DNA of 64,000 nt. It comes from a virus. The stretch lies in the IMG/VR virus record IMGVR_UViG_3300006871_000008, positions 26,845 through 90,844 of that record; one strand, 5' to 3'. Positions 20,379 to 50,738 of the stretch are shown here, piece by piece (within the stretch, counting starts at the first letter, position 1; the number at the start of each line of letters is the position of its first letter). Made by a program: the position numbers and the translations under genes. The notes beneath the pieces are model-generated. The model saw nothing but the letters and a program-made list of their open reading frames with translations. It was not told where the DNA came from and did not search any database.

Positions 20379-20945
20379 TCATGCTCCGTAGATAGTATCC
20401 ACCAGCCCAAGTTCCTTTGCTTCCTTGGCCGAGAGGATTAGGTCGGCTGCGCATTTCTTCCGCCAAAAGCTAATTGGCCTGCCCGACCGCTCAGCGTATA
20501 TCTCGTACATACGCTTTTGAGTTTTCTTGGAATACTCCGCCCAATTCTGGAAGGTTGTCGGAATGTCATTGACCCTGGACTCGTAACCATCGTGGACCAT
20601 GACGGTTGCGTTCGGGTAGATGATGCGCTGATCGGCAGCTTGCAAAATGATGCTGCCCATTGACATAGCTGAGCCAACCACGTAGATAGTGATTGGACAG
20701 GGACAGGCTTTGATAGAGTCATACACGGCCATGCCGTTAAACCAACACCCGCCGAAGCTATTGAGATATATCGTAATCTCTTTATCTTGAGCGGCGTTCG
20801 CCAGCATATGCAGGGCTTTTACAGCAAACTCCGATGTTCGCTGATTCACCCCATCTTCCTTATCGTCTCCTATGTAAACTGTGCGCGACTCAACATGAAT
20901 GTCGTAGTCGTAGAACCTATCAATACTCTCACGAACGAGTTTCAT
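20379..20945 (-). CDS. clpP: ClpP-like serine protease
   Basis: YLNSFGG, GSAMSMGS (Ser), MVHD (His), LSAKEAKELGLVD. Confidence 0.9.
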   Translation of the reverse strand: MKLVRESIDRFYDYDIHVESRTVYIGDDKEDGVNQRTSEFAVKALHMLANAAQDKEITIYLNSFGGCWFNGMAVYDSIKACPCPITIYVVGSAMSMGSIILQAADQRIIYPNATVMVHDGYESRVNDIPTTFQNWAEYSKKTQKRMYEIYAERSGRPISFWRKKCAADLILSAKEAKELGLVDTIYGA

Positions 20946-26444: not shown

Positions 26445-27379
26445 GATGCACGACTCCAATGAACCAGCCGGATATGGTTCGTTTCGCTGCCATTATCAGA
26501 ATTGTTGCAGCCCCAGAATACTCGATTTGGCGCACCAGCCATGTGCGCGGTTCGGCTGGCCGAAGCAATTTGAATCCACTCCACACCATCCATGCTAATA
26601 TAGAAAATCAGGTTGGTGTTGTTATCTTCCACCTTTAGCCAAACAACCGAGCCGATAAACGTGATAGTAGTCTTTGCCAGCAAGTCAGTCGTGACTGTGG
26701 TGGCATTCGTCCACTGGTAAACTGCAACCTGTTTAGCACGGCCACCAGAGCGACTGTCAGCTTGAACAGCCAGCGTTGTCAACTTGCCTGTGCTGCTTTC
26801 CCGGAAGCCGAGGCAGAAGAACGCATAGTCAGGGCTACCTTCAACCGGCATGAGTGGTTGAAAGGCGGCGATGTAACTATACGGGGCCGAGGGTGCTGTG
26901 CGTTCGAGGATACGCACGTTGTCGCCAGAACTTGTTGTAGGGATAAGTAGGATCGTCCCATCTTCATCGGTCTTAGTGGACGACCCTTGATTCTGCCAAG
27001 TGAAATCTGTAGCCGCTAGTACGGTAACACCATCATCATCGACAAGCAGATTGAGCGGCAGCAGACTCGACCAACCCCACAGTGGAATGTTGTCGGCGGC
27101 AAGACGGTCATACCCATCGGCTGTAATGACTTGAAAGATTTTCTTGCCATCTGCGTGCGAGGCTGCGGTTGTTCCATCTTGCCCGCGAACAACAGTCAGG
27201 TTGTTGCTGGACCGGGCTGTGACCAGCATAATCTCGCTCTCGACCACAACGCGGAAGTTGCCCGTCGAGGGGTACACAGACCCATCCGTGACAGTCACGG
27301 TTGTAACGCTATTGTTGATCGCACCATTCAAGGTCGTCTCAGTAGCGTTCTTCGTTAGTTCTTTTGCAGGAGCGGTCAC
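26441..27379 (-). CDS. Tail fibre/receptor-binding paralogue 2
   Basis: Same architecture; ends RLVHWSRAS. Confidence 0.7.
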   Translation of the reverse strand: MTAPAKELTKNATETTLNGAINNSVTTVTVTDGSVYPSTGNFRVVVESEIMLVTARSSNNLTVVRGQDGTTAASHADGKKIFQVITADGYDRLAADNIPLWGWSSLLPLNLLVDDDGVTVLAATDFTWQNQGSSTKTDEDGTILLIPTTSSGDNVRILERTAPSAPYSYIAAFQPLMPVEGSPDYAFFCLGFRESSTGKLTTLAVQADSRSGGRAKQVAVYQWTNATTVTTDLLAKTTITFIGSVVWLKVEDNNTNLIFYISMDGVEWIQIASASRTAHMAGAPNRVFWGCNNSDNGSETNHIRLVHWSRAS

Positions 27380-34240: not shown

Positions 34241-35284
34241 TTACACGCGAGACACGCCCGGCTCAACGGAATTACACTTTCCCGTCACGCTGATCGTGGC
34301 ATCACGCAAGTTGAATTCGAGGCTCTCGTACCGGAAGTCCGGGAACGTGTAATCCTCATTCAACTCTGACCCGCAGGGCGGATCGTACACAACTTCAATG
34401 TCAATGGCGAACGGCTCGCACGGGTCGCTAGACGAACTAGCAATCGTGGAGGCTTCACCTTGCTGCTTGAGGAAGTCGATAGGTGACGGAAGCCAAGCCC
34501 CGCCCGACCCATTCGTGTAGAACTCATACAGCAAATCCAGCTTCACTTCGACCGGCTGCTCATCGCCACGTCGAACCGTGTCTAGGTCGCCACGGTCACG
34601 GACGTAATCGAATTCGCGCTTCTCAGACCAAGTGAGATTGCCGTTACCAACCTTAATCTCGATGCGAGCAGGCAGGAAGGTAATGTCGGCATTGTCAGCC
34701 GGGATTCCATCAGCCGTGGCAAAGGCCGGGCTGAACGTGATGATGCCGGTCGTGCCGCCCTGATTGAGCGTGCTGACCGTCACCGTATCGCCGCCACCCG
34801 ACAAGTCCACGTCCGTAGCCGTCATTTGGGCGACGTTCGTGTTCAGGTAGGCTTGGGTAAACTTCACGATCCACTTGCCGGTCGCGGGCTTCGTCACAAT
34901 CACGTCGCCAGGGGCGATGTTGGACAGAGCCTCAAGAGCCGTCTGCACGTCGCTCGCGCTCGCGTTATAGGCGATATTCGCGGTCGTTTGTGCGCTGAAA
35001 GTGAGGGTGAAGTTACCAGACGTGGCATCCACGGTAACAAGTTGGTTTTCGTTCTTGTCCGTGGCAGTCACGGTATAGAACGCTTGGGTCGAGCCGACCA
35101 CCGAAAACCGTGCGCCAATTGGCACGACGGTTCCAGCATCCGGGAGGCTCGCCAAGTTGTCAATGTAAATCGACGTGTTACCATTGGCCGGTGCAGCCGG
35201 AGCGCCAGGTCCATTGACTTTGGCCGTGCCGGCAAAACCGTCCTTAAAGTAAATCGTCGTGTTACGAAGTTCAATTTGAGCCAT
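34241..35284 (-). CDS. Major tail (tube) protein paralogue with inserted domain
   Basis: Near-identical C-terminal 140 aa to 35310-36047; about 100-aa insert NENQLVTV...ALEALSNI. Confidence 0.75.
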   Translation of the reverse strand: MAQIELRNTTIYFKDGFAGTAKVNGPGAPAAPANGNTSIYIDNLASLPDAGTVVPIGARFSVVGSTQAFYTVTATDKNENQLVTVDATSGNFTLTFSAQTTANIAYNASASDVQTALEALSNIAPGDVIVTKPATGKWIVKFTQAYLNTNVAQMTATDVDLSGGGDTVTVSTLNQGGTTGIITFSPAFATADGIPADNADITFLPARIEIKVGNGNLTWSEKREFDYVRDRGDLDTVRRGDEQPVEVKLDLLYEFYTNGSGGAWLPSPIDFLKQQGEASTIASSSSDPCEPFAIDIEVVYDPPCGSELNEDYTFPDFRYESLEFNLRDATISVTGKCNSVEPGVSRV

Positions 35285-35309: not shown

Positions 35310-36047
35310 TTACGGGTCGCGGGACACGCTCGGCTCGACGGCATTACACTTGCCCGTCACGCTGATCGTGGCGTCCCGAAGATTGAACTCAAGGCTCTCG
35401 TAACGAAAATCCGGGAACGTGTAATTTTCGTTCGTTTCCGACCCGCACGGCGGATCGTAAATTACTTTCACGTCGATGGCAAACGGTTCGCAGGGGTCGC
35501 CAGACGAACTTGCCAGATTCGCAGCCTCATTGGCCCGTTTCAGGAAGTCAATGGGCGAGGGCAGCCAAGCACCGCCAGAGCCGTTCGTGTAGAACTCATA
35601 CAGCAAGTCGATTTTTACTTCGACTGGCTGCTCATCCCCACGTCGAACAGTATCAAGATCGCCACGATCCCGAACGTAGTCAAATTCCCGCTTCTCCGAC
35701 CACGTAAGATTCCCGTTACCAATCTTGATTTCGATTTGGGCCGGAAGGAACGTGATCGCAGCATCATTGGCAACAGAACTTGCCAAGGCCGGGGTGAAAG
35801 TCAAACTGGTAGTCGGGGGACCGCCAGAGTGAGCAGTTACCGTGTGTACGGGCGTGCCAGTCTCACCAGCGATGGTGAACCGAACACCCTCAAACACTTC
35901 ATTGCCGCTATCGGGCAGATTGGCAAGAGTGTCAATCGTGATGGTTGTGACACCACTCATGTACCCTCCGCCATTGTTTACGGCTGCCGTGCCCGTAAAA
36001 CCATCTTGCAGAAAGATGGTTGTATTACGAAGTTCAATTTGCGCCAT
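35310..36047 (-). CDS. Major tail (tube) protein
   Basis: MAQIELRNTT start shared with the paralogue; position after the tail terminator. Confidence 0.75.
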   Translation of the reverse strand: MAQIELRNTTIFLQDGFTGTAAVNNGGGYMSGVTTITIDTLANLPDSGNEVFEGVRFTIAGETGTPVHTVTAHSGGPPTTSLTFTPALASSVANDAAITFLPAQIEIKIGNGNLTWSEKREFDYVRDRGDLDTVRRGDEQPVEVKIDLLYEFYTNGSGGAWLPSPIDFLKRANEAANLASSSGDPCEPFAIDVKVIYDPPCGSETNENYTFPDFRYESLEFNLRDATISVTGKCNAVEPSVSRDP

Positions 36048-37178: not shown

Positions 37179-37442
37179 TTAATCCTCGCAACCGCTTCCA
37201 GGGCTTTCACGGCAAATGCGGCTTACCAACTTCTCGATACGCTCGATGACTTTTGTGCTGTTGGTAAGAGCCACGGTTGTTTGCGCAAGTTGCGTCTGCA
37301 AGGAATCACTGTACTTGTTCGTTAGTTCGTCGATTCGGGCGGCGTAACGCTTTTCACGCTGCCAACCTTGCCACACGAAATAAACAGTGAAGGCCACAAA
37401 GGGACCAAACTGTTTAGCCAATTCGAGGAAATCGAAACTCAT
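37179..37442 (-). CDS. Holin-like single-TM plus coiled-coil protein
   Basis: QFGPFVAFTVYFVW then REKRY...; BhlA/UviB-like architecture. Confidence 0.55.
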   Translation of the reverse strand: MSFDFLELAKQFGPFVAFTVYFVWQGWQREKRYAARIDELTNKYSDSLQTQLAQTTVALTNSTKVIERIEKLVSRICRESPGSGCED

Positions 37443-37527: not shown

Positions 37528-38940
37528 TTAGGCGAGCAGAACAGCACCCAAAGCGGTGTCAAGTTCCTTCACGCCGCACAACAGATCAAGCGTGACCATG
37601 AGGCCCTGCTTGGTCGCGTTGTACTGCATCGTCGCGCGAATCGCCATGCCTTCGTCAGCCACAACGCCCGATTGAGCGCCGAATTGCTGCGGGGGCGTGA
37701 CCAGCGGACGGGTGACGAGAGCCAGGGCGTTCCGATGGAAGGCCCAATTGAGGCTGCCGGACGGGCCAGGGAAGGCGGCGTCGTTGTTCGCCAGCGAGGC
37801 GGCAAGCGGACGATCCAGCCAAACCTGAACCTCGGTGTTCGGAGTCACAACATCGACCGCGATGATCGTGTACGTGTGGCTCGAACCACCTGTTCCGAAC
37901 GTAATCAACTGACCAACCTGCGGGGGCTTGGCTGACGTGAACGTATCAATGTTGATACCCTTCACGTAACCAGCCGCGAACGCACCGTTGACCGCAGCGG
38001 CCTTGTAAATCTTGAACGCAGCACCCGCCAGGGTCGCATTGACGTTCGCATTCACAAGGGTAATCGCCGTGGTGTCAGCCATGCTGACAGTGCGGGCCGA
38101 CACGCGATTCGGCTGGCCGTCGCCAACCACAACCACGTACTCACCCACGACAGCATTGTAGCCGGTCAGGGTGACGGCCTGCGAACCCGAACCACCAGCC
38201 GCCAGGGCATTCGTGACCGTGCCGGAGGCATAGTCAGTCGAAGCATCGCTGATGTAGTTCATGTTCTGGCACTCGAAAATATCGAAGCCAAGTTTCCGAC
38301 CGAGCGAGGCTTCACGCAGAGCCGAGCCATCATCGCCAACCTTCTGCGCTTCGAGGAAGCGGCTGTCCGACAACATGGTTGTCGAAGTGGTCGGGGTGAT
38401 GATGAGCCGACGCCCATCGGTGTAAGCCTTGTTGACGTTCAGCCGTTCGCGGAGGGCCAGAATATCCTCGACTGCCGTGCTGGAAGTCATGCCATTCAGC
38501 TTGCCAGCCTTGTTGGCTAGGAACTTGTGGACCTGACCGAGAACAACCTTGTCCACAGCCGTCGCAATGCTCTGCATGGCGGGCTTCACGTACTCCACAA
38601 CCAAGTCCTTGAACGACTTGCTCCATTCTTCATCGCGGATGATGAAGTTGGTGTGGAAGTGCTGATCCAACGGCACGGCCACGTTCGTCGCGGTCGCGTC
38701 TTGGGTGGTCACGTCATCCGTGGAAGTCTTGCGCTTTGCCACGAAGGTTCCCGGCTTCCGGGTGTTGACAATATCGCCGTAGCTGGCGACCTGATTCTCG
38801 AAGTCACGATGGACCAGATTCGAGACGACCATGTTTTCCAACAGGATCGACAGCGACTCATTGGCCCACAATTCCGGGATGTACGCATCCAGGCTGTTCG
38901 AGTAAAGGGCCAGAACCGGCTTGCAAAACAGAGGATTCAT
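37528..38940 (-). CDS. Major capsid protein (P22 coat-like) with large insertion domain
   Basis: PELWA, NLVHRDFE, GDIVN, AFHRNALALVTRPL, DLLCGVK. Confidence 0.9.
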   Translation of the reverse strand: MNPLFCKPVLALYSNSLDAYIPELWANESLSILLENMVVSNLVHRDFENQVASYGDIVNTRKPGTFVAKRKTSTDDVTTQDATATNVAVPLDQHFHTNFIIRDEEWSKSFKDLVVEYVKPAMQSIATAVDKVVLGQVHKFLANKAGKLNGMTSSTAVEDILALRERLNVNKAYTDGRRLIITPTTSTTMLSDSRFLEAQKVGDDGSALREASLGRKLGFDIFECQNMNYISDASTDYASGTVTNALAAGGSGSQAVTLTGYNAVVGEYVVVVGDGQPNRVSARTVSMADTTAITLVNANVNATLAGAAFKIYKAAAVNGAFAAGYVKGINIDTFTSAKPPQVGQLITFGTGGSSHTYTIIAVDVVTPNTEVQVWLDRPLAASLANNDAAFPGPSGSLNWAFHRNALALVTRPLVTPPQQFGAQSGVVADEGMAIRATMQYNATKQGLMVTLDLLCGVKELDTALGAVLLA

Positions 38941-38995
38941 GTGTGATTCCTTATTTGTTTGTGAAACAGACATTTGAAGAACAATCACCCCGGCA

Positions 38996-39868
38996 TTACT
39001 TCAATCCGAGAGCCTCCGGGTTCTCTTTTCGGATTTTGCGGTACTCGGCTGGCGTGAGTTGAGTCACGTCCACCTTTCCTTTACCCGGCTGGCGTGCGCC
39101 GGTCCCACTACTGCCACCCAGGCCACCCTGAGCATTTGACTTAAACAGGTAGCCGTATTCTTCCGGCTTCTGTTTCATCAGGCCCACCGCTTCGTCCGCA
39201 GTAATTACGGCGGTGAGTGGTTCATTCGTCTTGGAATCGACGGTCGGATAATGCACGCGAGGGGCCAACTCTCCCGTGGGTTTTCCTGTCGAGTCAAGAA
39301 CCGGAACCATCTTTGTCATTGGCTGCAAAATCGCAAGAATATGATCCGCGCGATATGCCTCCCCCTTGTTCGCAGCGTCCTGAATGGCTCGCCGGACTTC
39401 GGTAGATTCGTAACGATTTTTCCAAGAGTCCCGTTCCTCGGCCAACTGCTTCGAGGTTTTCGTGGACTCCACCTTGAATTTTTCAAATTCGTGTTTGGCC
39501 TGTTCTTCCTTGGTCCGGTATTGGGCCTGGAAGGATTCGAGGGCCGATTGCAACTCTTGTCGCTGCGACTCCGAGAGATTTTGATTCTCAAGTGCCGCCT
39601 TGTATTGTGTTTCCAGATTGGCAACCTGGGCTTGATGCTTTCGACGATCCTCCGCCAAAAACTTGTTTACATCATCTTGAGTGAACACGCGAGGTTTACC
39701 AGCAGCACCCGCCGCACCACCACCAGCAGCACCAGCAGCACCAGCAGCACCAGCCGCAGCCGCAGCCGCAGCCGCTCCACTACCATCACCTTCCCCGGCC
39801 CCGCCGCCGTCACCTTCACCATCGTACAGAGCCAGAACGGGAACAACCTTCCAAAGCAGATTAGACAT
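38996..39868 (-). CDS. Capsid scaffolding protein
   Basis: FTQDDVN, coiled coil, YLFKS..GGxG, LTPAEY; upstream of the capsid gene. Confidence 0.85.
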   Translation of the reverse strand: MSNLLWKVVPVLALYDGEGDGGGAGEGDGSGAAAAAAAAGAAGAAGAAGGGAAGAAGKPRVFTQDDVNKFLAEDRRKHQAQVANLETQYKAALENQNLSESQRQELQSALESFQAQYRTKEEQAKHEFEKFKVESTKTSKQLAEERDSWKNRYESTEVRRAIQDAANKGEAYRADHILAILQPMTKMVPVLDSTGKPTGELAPRVHYPTVDSKTNEPLTAVITADEAVGLMKQKPEEYGYLFKSNAQGGLGGSSGTGARQPGKGKVDVTQLTPAEYRKIRKENPEALGLK

Positions 39869-39954: not shown

Positions 39955-40476
39955 TTAAACGCGACTGAGTTTGATTCCACCCGGTTCGCGTAGAAAAGGT
40001 CGGAGATAACGCCAAGCCGTTGCGCTTGGCACGCCAGCATTCAAATGCTCTGGCGGATTGTGTGATCGGGAGTAAGTGGTTCGGACGCTCGAATAACCAT
40101 GCGAGATAATCGCCAGATTCTCCAACTCAATATCTGGATCGACTTCATCCAGCAAAGCATGGGCAATTTCGTAGCAGGCAATCTTGATTTCTTCGGGAAT
40201 GTTGGTGTCAGTGTCTCGCGGGAATTGCAACTCCTGCGTCAGACTTGCAGCATTGATAGCAGCTTGGTCCGGGACTTGTGTGGTCGTGAGGGTTTGGAGA
40301 TAGTCATAGACTGGTTTCTTGTAGCCCTTGAAGTTCAATCGGTCGATGATCTTCGTGGCCGCAATAAGCGACTTCTCTCGGTCGCCAGGACTGGCATCCG
40401 TCCAGGCCGCTTCATGCAGCCGAACATCGAAGTATGCCTGTGCTTCGTCGATTGTGACGTATGCTGTCATGTTCAA
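39955..40476 (-). CDS. Head-tail connector (DnaT-like) protein
   Basis: YVTIDEAQAYF..ATKIID..LQFPR..IPEEIKIACYEIA. Confidence 0.75.
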   Translation of the reverse strand: MNMTAYVTIDEAQAYFDVRLHEAAWTDASPGDREKSLIAATKIIDRLNFKGYKKPVYDYLQTLTTTQVPDQAAINAASLTQELQFPRDTDTNIPEEIKIACYEIAHALLDEVDPDIELENLAIISHGYSSVRTTYSRSHNPPEHLNAGVPSATAWRYLRPFLREPGGIKLSRV

Positions 40477-40479
40477 TCC

Positions 40480-42624
40480 TTAATTGACATAGGTAATTAC
40501 GATAGCGATTCCATCTGCACCAGCGCCACCAGTACCGGCGGTTGTGGGGTTGTTTGCACAACTCCCGCCGCCACCACCTGCACCAATCGCACCGCCGCTA
40601 CCGCCAGTCCGGGGCGTCGTAGTAATGAAACCACCGCCGCCACCCGCACCGCCCCAATAGTAGCCACTTGAGGCTCCACCATTTCCAGGTACACCGGCAT
40701 TTCCAACATTGCCGCCGACGCCGCCCGTAAATGTGGCGCTGGCAGAATTGCCACCAGCAGAACCTACCACGTTTGTATTAGTAGAACTGAATCCGCCACC
40801 GCCTCCACCGCCAGCCGCAGCACTTGTGTTGCTGCTAAGTGTCGTGGAACCGCCAGCGGTTGAGACATTGTTGCTATTGCCATTGCCGCCTGCACCGCCC
40901 GCTAACGCACCGGCACCGCCACCGCTACCAACTCCACCAGCACCACCTGCCGCTCCCGTAGTCGTGTTATTAGTTCCGCCACCGCCTCCACCGCCACCGC
41001 CAGCACTAAGAGTAATGCCAGCGCCGCCCGTACCGACAAAGGAACTTGCTGTTCCAGCTACTCCACCGCTACCATTGGTGTCATTGGTTGAGGCACCGGC
41101 ACCGCCAGTACCGCCAGTACCGCAAGTGATTGTGTCACCATCATTGAACAGTGCAGCGTTAAACAGTCCAGTAGTAAAGGCACCACCGCCTCCACCGCCT
41201 CCACCGCCGCGAGTTGAGCTAACAGCACCGCGACGACCGCCGCCTCCACCGCCACCGGCACCAATCAAAATAACTTCGACAGCCGTGGCCCCGGAGGGCT
41301 TTGAGTACGCTGCTGTGCCGCCAGTAGATACTACTTGAATGGCTACGCCATTCTGTCCGGGCGCACCTGTGTTACCTGTGTTACCCTTATCTCCCGCTCG
41401 CGCGAAAAACACCTTGACCGTATCGCCATTCGAGATAGTGCCAGTGCTAACTAAGTTGGTCACAGAAATCTTGTCGTAACTGCCCGCATCGGTGTTTGCA
41501 GCAACAATCGTAAAGACAATAAGATTCTGTGGCGCACCATCTTTCACAATTAGGATTTGACCACGATCAGTGAAGTTGGTGCTGTCGTCCCAACTCGCAA
41601 TCCAGTTAGCTAAACCGTTGCCATCCCCGTCAGTTTCATTGATGTAGATTTTTGTGACTGAGCCAATTGTGGCGTTATCAAATCGCAATTTGCCGGAACC
41701 GGGATCAGCGTCAGTTGTGCCGTTATCGAAGGTGTACTTGATTCCAGCATCGCGTCCCGCAGCACCCGTTGAGCCAGTCGAACCCGTTGAGCCAATATCA
41801 CCTGTGCGAATAAACTCAAGTTTGACGGGATCGTTGTTTGAGAACGTGCCATTAGAAACTACGTTGGCAACCGTCAAAGTGTCCCACGTCCCATTATCCG
41901 TCAAGGTTCCAGTTACGTTAAACAGTGCGAACTTGGCAGGGTTCGTATTATGCCGCATTAGGATTTGGCCCTTCACTGTGGAAGTGCTATCATCCCAAGC
42001 ATTGACATAGGCTCCTATTCCGTTTGCGTCCCCATCTGTTTCGGAAATATACAGAGCCGTGGCAGAAGCAAGAGTTGTGTTATTGAAACGCAAAGTTCCA
42101 GAGCCAGGATCGGCAGCGGTAGTTGTGGTGCTATAAGTGTATAGTAAACCAGCATTCCTACCATCGGCTCCATTAGACCCGTTGCTTCCATTGGAACCAT
42201 CATTGCCTGTATAAGAGGCCCAGATGCGAACGTAATCGCCGTTCGAGATTGATCCAGCCAGGATTTCGCCAACATTGAGTGTGTCCCAAGTACCGTTGTC
42301 AGTGTTGGTTCCGGTCACGTTGTAGATGAACAACGAGCCAGTTGATTCCACCATTATGTAAAGCCTAGCATGAACGGCATTGGTTGAATCATCCAAGGCA
42401 GCGAGCAGGCTTGCTACATTGTTTCCATCGGCATCTGTCTCGCTGATTGCGATTTGCGTGGCCGGTGGAATATTGAATCGAAACTTGCCGGAACCTGGGT
42501 CGGCAATTGTCGTGTTGGAATCATATTGAAACCGAATACCACCCGCTGCACCGACTACTGAATCGGCGGCGGCAACTTGCTGGACCTGACCAGCGCTGAT
42601 GATAAGGGGTTTCTTGATAGCCAT
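40480..42624 (-). CDS. Head fibre with three tandem domains and a glycine-rich tip
   Basis: Three DPGSGxxRF..ETDxDGN..DDST repeats with GxxGxx linkers; Gly-rich C-terminus. Confidence 0.75.
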   Translation of the reverse strand: MAIKKPLIISAGQVQQVAAADSVVGAAGGIRFQYDSNTTIADPGSGKFRFNIPPATQIAISETDADGNNVASLLAALDDSTNAVHARLYIMVESTGSLFIYNVTGTNTDNGTWDTLNVGEILAGSISNGDYVRIWASYTGNDGSNGSNGSNGADGRNAGLLYTYSTTTTAADPGSGTLRFNNTTLASATALYISETDGDANGIGAYVNAWDDSTSTVKGQILMRHNTNPAKFALFNVTGTLTDNGTWDTLTVANVVSNGTFSNNDPVKLEFIRTGDIGSTGSTGSTGAAGRDAGIKYTFDNGTTDADPGSGKLRFDNATIGSVTKIYINETDGDGNGLANWIASWDDSTNFTDRGQILIVKDGAPQNLIVFTIVAANTDAGSYDKISVTNLVSTGTISNGDTVKVFFARAGDKGNTGNTGAPGQNGVAIQVVSTGGTAAYSKPSGATAVEVILIGAGGGGGGGRRGAVSSTRGGGGGGGGGAFTTGLFNAALFNDGDTITCGTGGTGGAGASTNDTNGSGGVAGTASSFVGTGGAGITLSAGGGGGGGGGTNNTTTGAAGGAGGVGSGGGAGALAGGAGGNGNSNNVSTAGGSTTLSSNTSAAAGGGGGGGFSSTNTNVVGSAGGNSASATFTGGVGGNVGNAGVPGNGGASSGYYWGGAGGGGGFITTTPRTGGSGGAIGAGGGGGSCANNPTTAGTGGAGADGIAIVITYVN

Positions 42625-43106
42625 TACAGCTTAATCGGAGCAGTTGTGTCAATGTCCATTTCGGTGGCGCTGATCGCAAGGCCACACTTCACAACAAATT
42701 GTCCTGTGGTCGTTGGGGCTGTTTGAGTCAGCTTGCCTGCCGTACCAGCATCCAAGTAATAGACCGCACCCGGCGTCAAACCACCTGTTTCGCCAGTGAC
42801 AGCATCCCACTGTCCAGTCGTAGCAGCCAGCACGCCGTCTGTTTGGATGTTTCCAGAGGCCGCTGCCGCAATGGATGTATCGGCGACTAGGCCGAGAATC
42901 TGCACCGTACCTTGAGCATTAGCACGCCCCTTGTCCACGTTGCCATTTGACTTGACATAAACTGGCGCACCAATGACAATCGAACCAGCATTGTCATTTG
43001 TTTTGGCAATCACGTCAACTTCGGTGACGGACGCATTGAGCGTATCGCCAGCCTGTAGTTGCTCGATTTGGCCGTTCGTAATTACTAGCGGTTTCTTAGC
43101 TGACAT
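42624..43106 (-). CDS. Head decoration/cement-like protein (KKPL family)
   Basis: Paralogue of 50738-51220. Confidence 0.65.
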   Translation of the reverse strand: MSAKKPLVITNGQIEQLQAGDTLNASVTEVDVIAKTNDNAGSIVIGAPVYVKSNGNVDKGRANAQGTVQILGLVADTSIAAAASGNIQTDGVLAATTGQWDAVTGETGGLTPGAVYYLDAGTAGKLTQTAPTTTGQFVVKCGLAISATEMDIDTTAPIKL

Positions 43107-43110
43107 GGTT

Positions 43111-43650
43111 TTACAGTCGTATGACTGGTCCTATTTCAATGTCGAATTTCTTGGTATTTTGTGCCCGCCCGATTTTGACAACATAGTAGCCATCGGCTGT
43201 CGGTGCGGTAGTGGTCATCTTGCCCGGCGTGCTATCCAGAAAATAGATTGCTCCGGGAACCAAATCAGTGCTGCCAGTAATGCCTGACCAATCGGCAAGT
43301 TCTAGCGTGTAGTCAGTGTAGTAGTCCCCACCGACACCGACCAACGTATCGTTAATCATCAGCCCGGCAACTTGTGCAGTAGCAATCGAGTTGTTGGCGG
43401 CTTTCTGCAATCGACCAGTATTGTCGATGTAGATAATCTCACCTTCACTCAAATTCTCCGCAGCCTCGGCATTGTATGGGCTGGTTGTCCCGCCAATCAA
43501 ACCTTGTGCATATCGTTGTGTGGCAATGACTTCTGCAACGATTTGGTCGTAGGACGGATAAGCAGGGCCAGAGTCAATTTGTCGTGAGTCTCGATCAGCA
43601 GCAGTCCCGTCCCAGACTTGTGCTGGAAACTGTGCTTTGCGCTCAGACAT
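43111..43650 (-). CDS. Head decoration protein (WDG family plus cement-like domain)
   Basis: Paralogue of 51220-51732. Confidence 0.65.
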   Translation of the reverse strand: MSERKAQFPAQVWDGTAADRDSRQIDSGPAYPSYDQIVAEVIATQRYAQGLIGGTTSPYNAEAAENLSEGEIIYIDNTGRLQKAANNSIATAQVAGLMINDTLVGVGGDYYTDYTLELADWSGITGSTDLVPGAIYFLDSTPGKMTTTAPTADGYYVVKIGRAQNTKKFDIEIGPVIRL

Positions 43651-44498
43651 TAGTACCCTTTCTTGAAATCCAGAATATGCCACTTACCATTCTGGCCTTC
43701 ATAGATTACATCGAGGTAGCTGATTGACAGTGGACGATCCGAGGGTGTGACACTTTCATTCCCGTAATGGAAGCCGCTGCCCAGACTCAGGAATCGGCCA
43801 CCAGTTGCATCTTGCTGAATGCGAATCAAAATTCGCTTGCCATCTACGCCGTTGATCGGGGCCTTGAGGATTGAGTTTTCGAGCAGTAGGATATGGAACA
43901 GGTTGCCTTGCGAAGCGTCCACTTCGAGAACCTTGCAGCTATCGACTTTGATAAGTTCGACCGCATCGCCTCTTGGACCTTGTGGGCCGGGCGGTCCTTC
44001 TGGACCTTGCGGGCCTTGCACACCTTGCGGGCCGATTGGACCTTCAACGCCTCTTGGACCGAGGGGGCCGGGCGGTCCACCTGGATCGCCGGTATCTCCC
44101 TTCGGGCCTCTCGGACCTTGCGGGCCGGGTGGACCATGCGGGCCTTGGAATCCTTGTGCGCCTTGCAAGCCGACTCGACCCTCTGCTCCGGGTTCACCTT
44201 GCGGGCCAATTGGGCCGGGCGGGCCGGGCAAGCCTTGATCGCCTCGCTCGCCTTTGGGGCCAGCGGGACCGATTGGACCTTGCGGGCCGGGCGGACCACC
44301 GGGCGTGCCGGGGTCGCCTTTTGGACCTTGCGGGCCGGGCAAGCCGAGCGGAATGCGACCTTCGAGAATGGCCGACTCAATAGCCTGAATCTCGGTGGTG
44401 AGTACGCGCATGTCCCGATAGTCGGGGTTAATGGTGTCAGACGAATGCTGACGGTTGGGCGTTAGCCCGTCCCAGACTTGTTCGGGGAACTTACTCAT
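43650..44498 (-). CDS. Collagen-like fibre protein
   Basis: Long GPxGPx run; WDG N-terminus; [10 protein letters not shown]-domain. Confidence 0.85.
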
Positions 44499-46267
44499 TG
44501 TGCCGCTCCTGTGTTCTGTCCGGGGCCGCGAACAGGCTTACCTTGTTTCTCTGCTACACCTTGATTCGGTGTGACTGCCGCATCCGGGACGCCTCGCGCC
44601 CCTGCGGTCGCTGGATTAACGCCACCGGGCGGTGTCTGCGACTTTGCAATCAGTGCCAGCCGATCTGCTTGATCCTTGCGAGCCTGTTCAACTTCGTTGG
44701 GATCATAGCCGCGAGCCTCCGAGGCTGTGGCTTGACTAACAAGACCATTGGTTAGGTCTTGTGTGATAATCAGCGAGTCACACGATTGATACTTGGCCTT
44801 ATCAACTTCGGCCTGCATCGCGGTCAATTCATCGGGAGAGAGTTTGCCACGAAGCAAAATGTCAATAATGTCTTTGTTGATTTGCTTCTGGAAAGACTTG
44901 CTTGGGACAGCAAACTTGAGTTCATTGTGATCTTTGGCTTCCTTCCGGCGTTCTTCATCCGTTTTGATACTGTACTGTTCGGGGTATTGAATGGTGGCAG
45001 CTTCACCACCTTCATACATCGACCAGAAGCGGGCAATTCGCCGTTCGCCATTTTCGAGTACCAATCCGATGTAGGACAGGCCAGATTCCAGGCCCGTTTG
45101 GTCGAGTTGCTTGGACTCAGCCGACGCCATCTTGGGATTGATATTTGTTACGGCAAGATTCACAAGCAGCCGAATATCCTCTTTCAACTTCTCTTGCAGC
45201 TTCATCGACGCATCCAGCGGTTCGCTGGAAGGGTGAATGAAGCCAGGACGTTCGGTGTTAATATCGTACTGACGGCCTTGCACCGGGCCAACCATTACTT
45301 CCTCATCCCGTGCTTGCTGGCTGCCGGTTACGGCTGCCGCATCAGGATTCAGATTCTCCATCAGATGCAGGCTGCCACCGCGCAAGTCCCGCTGCTCTGT
45401 ATAGAATGGGAAGTTGGCTTTAAGGGCGTAGGCTACGTCGCTGGAACCAAGATTCAACAGCGCGATTTGGTGATTCGCAACATCCTCGATAATCGACTGT
45501 CGAATATCCATGCAGACGAAGGGGATAGTTGTGATCGCCAATTCGATTGGTCCACCACCAACCAAACCATCTTGATCGGTCGGGGTAAAACTCTTGTCGT
45601 AGAATTGAACATTCACTTTGCCAGTGACCGGATCAATCCACAAGTGTCGGTAACGCTCGACTTCACCAAAGGCTAACTGCGTCAACGGATCATAGTCCAC
45701 GCAACGGTCACGCAGTAGGATGGAGCGATAGTGGTCAGGCTCTTGAATCGAGACGCTCGACCATGACAAAATATCTTCAACGCGATACAGGTACAAGTAC
45801 GGGCGAACCGACGTTGCATCCAGAATCGAGGGGTTTTCCGGCAGCGGAGGATTGTCAACATAAATGCCGACACGCCCCATCACCAGTAGCTCCGGTAGCA
45901 CTTCCTGTCCAAGAAATGCGTTCATCGTCGAGCCACGCATGTCCACGCCGTTGTCAAGTCCCTGTACCGCAATCTGGTATGACTGAGAACCACCCTTCCG
46001 CGTAATGTCGGTCATTCGCTGGAAGATGCTGTTCTTAATGTCATTGACAGCCGCTTTGGCAAAGGCAGGGACCGGGGTGATAGACCTTCGGTCACGGAAA
46101 TCTTGCAGACGTTCGCGCGAGCTAAATTTCTTGAGGTATCGAGCAACGAATTCGTCGCCGCCCTCATAGGCTCGCCGCCACTTGTCCCAATCCTTGAGGC
46201 GTGCCAGATACTCTGGATGCCGGGTTTTGGGTACTTTGATTTGGTCTGTCTTTGGCTGCGCCATCAT
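44495..46267 (-). CDS. Portal protein
   Basis: Directly downstream of TerL; HPEY..W..AYEGG..YL, IPFV, AESKQLD. Confidence 0.85.
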
Positions 46268-49186: not shown

Positions 49187-49774
49187 TTACTTTCCTTCAA
49201 GTTTGGATTCGAGGAACTCGCGGCTGTGACCAGCACCATTTCCGCGATACACAACCTTACCGTCTCGCACAACTGCGACAACCGGCACAGAACTAATGCC
49301 CCACGCATTTGCACTTGCCCTATCTTGGTCAATGTCCACTATGAAAACTTTGTGCTTACCGGCGTCTTTGATAGACTCGATGACCGGCTTTTGCGAGCGG
49401 CAAGGCCCGCACCACGTCGCTGTGAAATAGATCAGGTAGTCTTTGGGTTGAGCAGCGTTCTCACTCTTAGCCACTCCCGCTCCGTTTGTCGCCTTTGGCG
49501 CATCGTTAGAAACGGGCGTAGCCGGTTCTTTCTCAGCAACCTTCGCAGATTCCGTTCCTGGCGTTCCACTCTCCGCCGACGCAGTTTGTTCGGCCTCTCC
49601 GAGTCCAAGACCGTAATCAATCGCTGTAGCTGTTCGATCAGCCTCGACCACTTGAACGTGCCCCTCGACAGGTCCAGTAGAGTTGAACGAATGAGCCGCT
49701 TTAGGACAAGCCACGCACGCAGCATAAGCCACCGCCATCAGCATACAAGCGCTGTGTAAAAGCCAAAATTTCAT
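49187..49774 (-). CDS. Exported or membrane-anchored thioredoxin
   Basis: Hydrophobic N-terminus MKFWLLHSACMLMAVAYAA, low-complexity linker, FTATWCGPC, cis-Pro SVP. Confidence 0.88.
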   Translation of the reverse strand: MKFWLLHSACMLMAVAYAACVACPKAAHSFNSTGPVEGHVQVVEADRTATAIDYGLGLGEAEQTASAESGTPGTESAKVAEKEPATPVSNDAPKATNGAGVAKSENAAQPKDYLIYFTATWCGPCRSQKPVIESIKDAGKHKVFIVDIDQDRASANAWGISSVPVVAVVRDGKVVYRGNGAGHSREFLESKLEGK

Positions 49775-49796: not shown

Positions 49797-50738
49797 TTAG
49801 AATAATCGGTAATCAAGGTCTTGGGATTCAAAACCTGTGTAGCCTGACATTGCATAGCTATCATCCTGTCGGAGCATTGCATCGGCCACTTCGGCATCAA
49901 CCCAGAACGAACCGGAGGGTTGGTTGTGTCGGGTCGGGCCAGAAATCCAATCCTCGCCCCAACTATTCCAGCACAGCAAGCCGGGCCGACTATACTCGTC
50001 GTCCACGGAAACGAACAACATACAGTGACTCCAAGAGCCACTTGGACGGGCAAAGCCGTCCTTGTCCCGCACGCTGCGGAACCCATAATTTGAGCAGACG
50101 GGCACAGGATAGCCGTTCGCAATTGCATCACGCGCTTCCTCATATGACCGCACAGGAGAGACTGTCTTGACCGGATGCTCTTTGCCGATTGGCTCAAGTT
50201 CATCGGGCGCTCCCGCGCGAGGCGCACCCCACCGACGAGAAATCTCACCACTGTAGTTGGTCAAATCATACTTGCCGTCCAGATACTTCATCCGATGGAG
50301 TGTGCCGTATTTCACGACACCTTCGGCAGCCCATGCACCGTTGGAGCCATCGCCCCAACCGCAACCACCGCGCCCAATTTCAACGCGCGAAATGGCATAA
50401 ATGTACTCAGTCGAAGCCTTAGCGGCGAACTTTTCTCGCTTGCCAGCCTTGATTTCGGAGGCTTGCAGCACGTCCACGCCCATGCCCCAACCCTGGCTAA
50501 CGCATGTACCGTAGTTACCCTGATTGTGCGAGCGGCATTGAGGATCAACGACTTCACGGTAAAATTCGTGCAGAAGGACGATTTTGCCCTTCCCGCTATC
50601 CTGAATCGCCGGCGCTGCCGTCTTGAATTGCCCCATCGGGCCAAGACTGGCATGATATGCGGCAATATCTTCCCGCTTCGGCTGCCAACCAGCCAGAGAG
50701 CCAGCGGCGTGCAGATCAAGAATGTTGTAGTCGGCCAT
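49797..50738 (-). CDS. Papain-like (C1) cysteine protease
   Basis: NQGNYGTCV (Gln/Cys), SHCM (His), WNSWG (Asn). Confidence 0.9.
   Translation of the reverse strand: MADYNILDLHAAGSLAGWQPKREDIAAYHASLGPMGQFKTAAPAIQDSGKGKIVLLHEFYREVVDPQCRSHNQGNYGTCVSQGWGMGVDVLQASEIKAGKREKFAAKASTEYIYAISRVEIGRGGCGWGDGSNGAWAAEGVVKYGTLHRMKYLDGKYDLTNYSGEISRRWGAPRAGAPDELEPIGKEHPVKTVSPVRSYEEARDAIANGYPVPVCSNYGFRSVRDKDGFARPSGSWSHCMLFVSVDDEYSRPGLLCWNSWGEDWISGPTRHNQPSGSFWVDAEVADAMLRQDDSYAMSGYTGFESQDLDYRLF

Follow-up and report, generated by a model that had tools for sequence, protein, structure and literature searches.

Coat and scaffolding proteins of an uncultured phage family carry matched N-terminal leaders that co-vary within each phage

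Two otherwise unrelated head proteins of a phage, the coat protein and the scaffolding protein, were found to begin with leader peptides that share the hexamer PVLALY. The question raised by this locus is what such a leader does: whether it is a propeptide removed during head assembly, a tag that stays in place and acts by binding, or a resemblance without function. Both genes lie on the minus strand of a stretch of 64,000 nucleotides, here called the window, which is the final 64 kb of a 90.8-kb IMG/VR viral contig (record IMGVR_UViG_3300006871_000008, positions 26,845 to 90,844). Comparison with relatives established that the leader is under selection at the protein level and that it co-varies, position by position, between the two proteins of each phage. 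The parts of the locus on which the argument depends are as follows.

37528-38940, minus strand: major capsid (coat) gene, 470 amino acids, P22-coat family (PF11651 P22_CoatProtein and phrog_283).
38902-38940, minus strand: coat leader, 13 residues, MNPLFCKPVLALY, with the Y-to-S junction at its end (read from the open reading frame (ORF); the family profiles start downstream of the leader).
38863-38901, minus strand: conserved putative mature coat start and beginning of the N-arm, SNSLDAYIPELWA (alignment of homologues and N-termini of 120 homologues).
38996-39868, minus strand: scaffolding protein gene, 290 amino acids (phrog_206, head scaffolding protein, E 3.7e-09).
39824-39868, minus strand: scaffold leader, 15 residues, MSNLLWKVVPVLALY, with the Y-to-D junction at its end (right-anchored alignment to the coat leader, here and in relatives).
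39692-39823, minus strand: acidic Gly/Ala low-complexity linker directly behind the scaffold leader (reading of the sequence).
38999-39073, minus strand: conserved basic C-terminal motif of the scaffold, ..TPAEYRKIRKENPEALGLK (alignment and C-termini of relatives).

The coat protein belongs to the P22 coat family, matching PF11651 at E 9.5e-29 (100.9 bits against a curated cut-off of 24) and phrog_283 at E 4.5e-51. Its ATG is at 38940 (minus strand) with an AAGGA ribosome-binding site ahead of it, and the N-terminus reads MNPLFCKPVLALY followed by SNSLDAYIPELW, that is, MNPLFCK-PVLALY and then SNSLD. The scaffold ATG is at 39868, and its N-terminus reads MSNLLWKVVPVLALY followed by DGEGDGGG (MSNLLWKVV-PVLALY and then DGEG); both start codons have ribosome-binding sites of the AGGA type. 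The leader common to the two proteins, first described in an earlier note made from the DNA alone, was thus confirmed by ORF reading, coordinates and ribosome-binding sites. The PVLALY codons occupy 38902-38919 in the coat gene and 39824-39841 in the scaffold gene, and four of the six differ synonymously. By chance, a common hexamer in two 20-residue N-termini would be expected about 1.4e-5 times.

On the coat, the leader sits exactly before the point at which leaderless P22-type coats start, as the earlier note had supposed. The family consensus at this point is ANDNDAxIPELWA by alignment, and the window phage has SNSLDA.. there. An AlphaFold2 (AF2) model of the coat was obtained with a mean predicted local distance difference test score (pLDDT) of 81; residues 1-17 scored below 50 and had no secondary structure, and the N-arm helix began at residue 22. 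The closest solved homologous capsids, 8zdh and 8e16, start at about the leader junction. On this model the leader lies outside the predicted coat fold, as a detachable add-on. The basic C-terminus of the scaffold is presumed, by analogy with P22, to be its coat-binding end. A complex prediction for the full coat with scaffold residues 1-45 returned a score of 0.00; controls were not run, and this value has no bearing either way. Directly after the coat gene, 37179-37442 (minus strand) encodes a protein of 87 residues whose N-terminal segment is hydrophobic and whose tail is a coiled coil; it is kept in five of six compared genomes.

More than 1000 homologues of the coat were found, and more than 500 viral contigs encode the family. 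Two scans with coat alignments yielded 160 viral loci and a third yielded 24 loci from genomes; single-sequence searches with the window coat alone, or with the coat of locus L097 alone, returned no loci, and the alignments retrieved them. The 24 genome loci are mostly from Planctomycetota metagenome-assembled genomes (MAGs; Thermoguttaceae, Pirellulales and Planctomycetaceae), and on the basis of these prophage copies the relatives are phages and prophages of Planctomycetes. Among the best 120 homologues, nearly all N-termini carried a short hydrophobic stretch ending in C-[YF] right before ANDNDAxIPELW. The scaffold gene is immediately upstream of the coat gene in all relatives, and at every locus where it is complete it encodes a leader that matches the coat leader when the two are anchored at the right. 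The scaffold leaders end on the same residue as the coat leaders and continue into an acidic Gly/Ala-rich linker. Leaders range from 6 to 24 residues and are uncharged (near-zero charge), hydrophobic and beta-prone.

Unique coat/scaffold pairs were compiled in a near set (66 pairs) and a second, more distant set (80 loci), giving 143 unique pairs when combined. The consensus leader of the near set is S-x-P-phi-phi-A-C-[YF], followed by A-N-D-N-D in the coat and [DE]-G-[DE]-G in the scaffold. An aromatic residue occupies the junction in approximately 85% of coats. Over the first five residues behind the junction, net charge averages -2.6 for scaffolds and -1.8 for coats. The tag is confined to these two proteins: in seven complete or near-complete genomes and approximately 65 loci, no third tagged protein was seen, cargo and other head proteins included. 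Leaderless members also occur. In L211 the coat (L211:770-2128) begins with M-ANDLDAF, and a stop lies two codons ahead of it; the scaffold (L211:2-760) has an apparent start at M-ADENVD, in a frame that is open to the contig end. In the distant Bifidobacteriaceae pair L104 both proteins are leaderless. A further coat, P0078, also appears to lack a leader. No description of the leader motif was found in the literature.

Between phages the leaders are divergent; within a phage they are matched, junction residue included (Y or F, and also G, C, H, T or R). Similarity between coat and scaffold leaders of the same phage was 22.7 in the near set, against 12.5 +/- 0.6 when the pairings were shuffled (0 of 5000 shuffles reached 22.7), and 20.6 against 9.4 over the combined 143 pairs. 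Residue pairs at P2 were C/C (55), L/L (3), F/F (2), V/V (2) and A/A (1), and those at P3 were chiefly A/A (25), V/V (7), T/T (6) and L/L (6), with S/S also occurring. In the clade of the window phage, Leu replaces the usual Cys in coat and scaffold alike, and the nearest relative (L001) has PTLAL[FY] in both proteins. The distant set contains matched junctions of G/G, C/C, H/H and T/T, with leader ends such as YQIKWVG, IQLTYC and ..VH identical in the two proteins. A cut after Tyr, which the earlier note had proposed for both proteins, therefore fails as a general rule, the junction being Y or F in most pairs and G, C, H, T or R elsewhere, matched on both sides. A coat tree with 152 members, for which only the mature part was used, gave approximately 10 independent contrasts in coat junction class; in 7-8 of them the scaffold shifted with the coat and in 0-1 against it (sign test, median p 0.016). 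The co-conservation that the earlier note had suggested looking for by aligning N-termini is thus present in the relatives, as co-variation.

Codons at identical residues were identical in 44% of cases within a phage versus 38% between phages, which is barely over background; gene conversion or another homogenisation of the DNA was ruled out on this ground, and the leader match is kept by selection on the protein. The earlier observation that the codons differ, with conservation at the protein level, holds for the window and for its relatives. A bacterial lipoprotein signal peptide, with a lipobox of the form L-[AS]-[GA]-C, was considered and ruled out, as leaders are as short as 6 residues with near-zero charge. 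In addition, the Cys is not invariant: matched pairs, that of the window phage included, may have L, V, F or A in its place.

The nearest known counterpart is found in Staphylococcus phage 80alpha, where capsid (CP) and scaffold (SP) carry a leader that is cut by Prp, a host protease that also processes ribosomal protein L27 (PMC5744158, PMC9405229). There, the scaffold leader is needed for assembly even if it cannot be cut (PMC5744158). As in 80alpha, otherwise unrelated coat and scaffold start with the same leader of 13-15 residues, with an aromatic end and then a small residue, and no dedicated prohead protease lies between portal and coat. To our knowledge, 80alpha is the only characterised phage in which coat and scaffold have a common leader. 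The present system departs from it in several ways. Its motif is different and not L27-like, in the genomes searched the likely Planctomycetota hosts have no Prp and a short L27 and no host protein shares the tag, and the tag varies widely between phages while co-varying within each. Cleavage is a demonstrated event in 80alpha and a putative one here. The system works like the 80alpha leader but fails two of its defining features, L27 mimicry and Prp.

The locus also resembles that of P22 (gp5 and gp8): its coat is of the P22_CoatProtein family, its scaffold is a separate protein that carries a basic motif at the C-terminus, the scaffold gene precedes the coat gene, and the head block contains no protease. 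P22 coat and scaffold are not known to undergo proteolytic processing in assembly or to have a common N-terminal tag; unlike them, the proteins described here both carry an extra matched leader before the equivalent start. In T4, capsid-targeting sequences and propeptides are removed by the prohead protease gp21, the tag marking internal cargo and the protease being part of the prohead core. The T4 tags are similar in being short, N-terminal, common to several head proteins and defined at their end site; unlike in T4, only coat and scaffold are tagged here and no prohead protease is conserved with the tag among the ORFs scanned. A propeptide or capsid-targeting sequence of the T4/HK97 type was ruled out, with two tagged proteins only and no prohead protease in the Pfam and PHROGs scans.

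The explanation favoured here, as an even chance, is a co-evolving assembly leader on coat and scaffold that is read by a phage-specific partner. The two N-termini would represent one portable module, a short hydrophobic peptide with a fixed junction and acidic residues at once after it, placed on a normal P22-type coat start and on the scaffold start. It would give the two proteins a common handle for a phage-specific reader in procapsid assembly, and this reader might be a peptidase of the phage, a docking site that both use on some phage protein, or the matching leader itself. The leader may then be removed at or beside the junction, with odds close to even or a little better, leaving a coat that starts like its leaderless relatives (ANDNDA.. 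there, SNSLDA.. here). That 80alpha requires its scaffold leader whether it is cut or uncut is a parallel to this proposal.

Removal of the leader is about evenly balanced against its retention. It is favoured because the only known precedent is cleaved, because the exact boundary coincides with the start of leaderless relatives, because both sides of the junction are conserved, and because a disordered, hydrophobic leader would be awkward in a packaged head. Several points weigh against it. No protease was found that is common to all leader-bearing relatives (ClpP in 2 of 20, a C1-like peptidase in 10 of 20), Prp is absent, and no host protein with a similar N-terminus was found. The variable junction residue speaks against a single conserved host enzyme whose P1 preference is fixed, and the cut is dispensable in 80alpha while the scaffold leader is essential (PMC5744158). 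The relatives, moreover, are all uncultured, with hosts assigned through prophage copies in Planctomycetota MAGs.

A different reading, quite possible though short of even, is that the leader is an uncleaved docking or self-recognition tag that stays on the proteins and acts by binding. In one form, the leader of the coat would pair with that of the scaffold, for instance through in-register beta strands in the procapsid or between nascent chains of the adjacent genes. In another, a single groove on some phage protein, for instance the portal or the basic C-terminal domain of the scaffold, would accommodate both, with the leader and acidic tract of the scaffold imitating the N-arm of the coat. 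The two leaders co-vary by identity at almost all positions, the junction included, and this suits a reader that is phage-specific or self-complementary better than it suits an enzyme that stays the same. Neither a universal protease nor a host look-alike substrate was found, acidic residues follow both leaders, the scaffold C-terminus is basic and conserved, and in 80alpha it is the leader of the scaffold and not the cut that is indispensable (PMC5744158). On the other side, the prediction for the coat monomer has a disordered leader, and an uncleaved tag would leave hundreds of hydrophobic, mostly Cys-containing peptides in a DNA-filled head. Leaderless coats begin exactly at the junction, as at a propeptide boundary, and the sole characterised precedent is cleaved. 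A more specific proposal is doubtful: a pairing code that works without a protease, coat and scaffold of each phage recognising each other, or one phage-encoded site, through their near-identical beta-prone leaders. Were it true, every lineage would maintain a matching pair of its own, cross-assembly between co-infecting relatives would be prevented, and it would be a new principle of coat-scaffold coupling in the head assembly of tailed phages.

If the leader is removed, an enzyme has to be named, and the earlier note had listed a C39-like, a C1 or a ClpP protease of the phage, or a host enzyme. The phage candidates and the gene adjoining one of them are the following.

20379-20945, minus strand: ClpP-family protease (PF00574, E 1.7e-34), at the far end of the tail module.
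49797-50738, minus strand: papain-like (C1-fold) cysteine peptidase, 313 amino acids (catalytic set, AF2 model and Foldseek).
49187-49774, minus strand: thioredoxin-domain gene (PF00085), adjoining the papain-like peptidase, upstream of TerL.

Scans of the whole 90.8-kb contig with the Pfam profiles gave no match for C39, the first of these candidates, and none for C1. No prohead protease of the T4, HK97 or lambda type was present among the ORFs scanned against Pfam and PHROGs. For the ClpP protein, G009 has a counterpart at the same position with 78% identity, and most relatives have none (ClpP is present in 2 of 20, and in none of the four complete genomes), so that it cannot serve as a general leader protease. 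If an enzyme is involved, Prp can be set aside, and so, for the family as a whole, can the phage ClpP.

The C1 candidate fared better, being real by fold. The AF2 model of the papain-like peptidase (pLDDT 92.9) has a predicted papain fold with a Gln/Cys/His/Asn catalytic set, of which Gln73, Cys79, His238 and Asn258-Ser-Trp are invariant in 38 homologues. Its best Foldseek matches were xylellain, cathepsins S and B, and papain (E down to 2.7e-10); Pfam and PHROGs did not recognise the protein, and a sequence-profile search of the PDB gave nothing useful. The gene was found in 10 of 20 relatives and in all four complete genomes, and it is the only candidate in the window phage common to every complete relative. 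It is missing from three well-covered relatives (G008, G009 and G011) although the region upstream of TerL is on the contig, and their leaders are still there. In these three, the same slot beside the same small thioredoxin holds a 200-residue protein with the motifs SHVG...FEST...FCSEW, together with three other unknown genes. This protein has no Pfam or PDB sequence match; its nearest named Atlas cluster is Peptidase_C92 (score 0.96; 23% of members carry the label), and as a lead it may be C92-like, that is, a permuted papain. The cysteine-peptidase slot is filled in 9 of 9 fully read genomes with the region on the contig (G012 ends at TerL).

It is unlikely, on this evidence, that the papain-like peptidase is the leader peptidase, with the C92-like cassette peptidase substituting in relatives that have no papain-like one. 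In the papain family, the residue preferred at P2 is typically bulky and hydrophobic. With the conserved aromatic residue held in a papain-type S2 pocket, the cut would fall one residue later, between [YF]-[ADE] and [NG]. This preference, the invariant catalytic set with its confident model and Foldseek matches, and the occurrence in four of four complete relatives, with a slot filled in all nine readable genomes, are in its favour. Against it, the cassette lies outside the portal-to-coat block, beside a thioredoxin and upstream of TerL, a frequent site for lysis genes, and NlpC/P60-type and C92-type peptidases are typically cell-wall hydrolases. The gene itself is not recognised by Pfam or PHROGs, and the C92 assignment of its substitute is a lead only. 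Thioredoxin and cysteine peptidase probably form a swappable lysis cassette; a lysis role is the likelier one because of the slot position, the thioredoxin neighbour, the swappability and the lack of any other endolysin candidate in Pfam scans of approximately 50 ORFs.

A strict analogue of 80alpha, in which a host protease for a host protein with the same leader cuts both phage proteins after an aromatic residue, is very unlikely. The formal likeness to 80alpha, Prp and L27 speaks for it (PMC5744158, PMC9405229), as does the aromatic junction of most coats, and the analogy drawn in the earlier note stands in its form, a common capsid and scaffold leader. The enzyme and the host substrate of the analogy did not hold. 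Prp is found mainly in Firmicutes and a few other phyla. With positive controls, searches for Prp (PF04327) found none in the phage, none in the five Planctomycetota genomes that harbour related prophages and none in a sample of 121 genomes from the phylum. L27 in the five genomes starts MAHKKGQGSS, without an N-terminal extension. A 15-column leader profile run over the same five genomes matched only prophage coats and scaffolds, all remaining matches having E >2. A search of the host genomes with a degenerate DNA pattern gave counts at chance level, with no host N-terminus among the 30 of 53 sites examined. Within the limits that a short motif and a first-pass filter set on these searches, the host proteins with the same N-terminal leader that the earlier note had thought worth seeking were thus not found in either search. 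Prp being absent, L27 short and no host protein tagged, host-substrate mimicry as in 80alpha is without support here, and the matched G, C, H, T and R junctions also tell against an enzyme that cuts after aromatic residues. On the chromosome of G002 (the genome of L086), further matches to the DNA pattern at 2200773 and 2692005 encode V-C-Y-A-N-D, the usual junction of the coat, and several prophages of the family may reside in this Thermoguttaceae genome.

That the resemblance has no function at the protein level, whether by chance, by recent duplication or gene conversion of the 5' ends, or as an RNA or translation-initiation element, could be imagined for adjacent genes that both have AGGA-type ribosome-binding sites, and can hardly be credited with a chance expectation of about 1e-5, a match kept over 143 unique pairs of many different sequences, codon identity of 44% against 38%, and four of six PVLALY codons differing in the window.

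Other genes of the head and tail region were noted in passing. The gene preceding the scaffold encodes an Ad1-type adaptor (39955-40476), and between it and the portal (44495-46267) lie four genes (40480-44498, minus strand) that are variable or absent in relatives and may encode head or neck fibres. One (43650-44498) encodes a collagen-repeat protein, two (43111-43683 and 42624-43106) encode small paralogues whose C-termini are similar, and the fourth (40480-42624) encodes a 714-residue protein with three internal repeats and a Gly-rich tail. At the position of the major tail protein, 34241-35284 and 35310-36047 (minus strand) are tandem paralogues with a near-identical N-terminus (MAQIELRNTTI..), a near-identical C-terminal stretch of approximately 150 residues and different middles. 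One matches major tail protein PHROGs and the other has no tail-family match; the longer one has an insert that matches tail-tube and sheath-like PHROGs.

For the annotation and expression of these capsids, the junction is relevant as a likely propeptide boundary. With two genes, a tag of 13-15 residues, and natural leaderless and variant pairs as controls, L211 among them, the locus offers a clean system for testing. A common leader architecture extends across a very large family of uncultured phages, in a phylum where the 80alpha explanation cannot apply. A tag that evolves fast and yet stays matched points to a general way in which coat and scaffold may be coupled.

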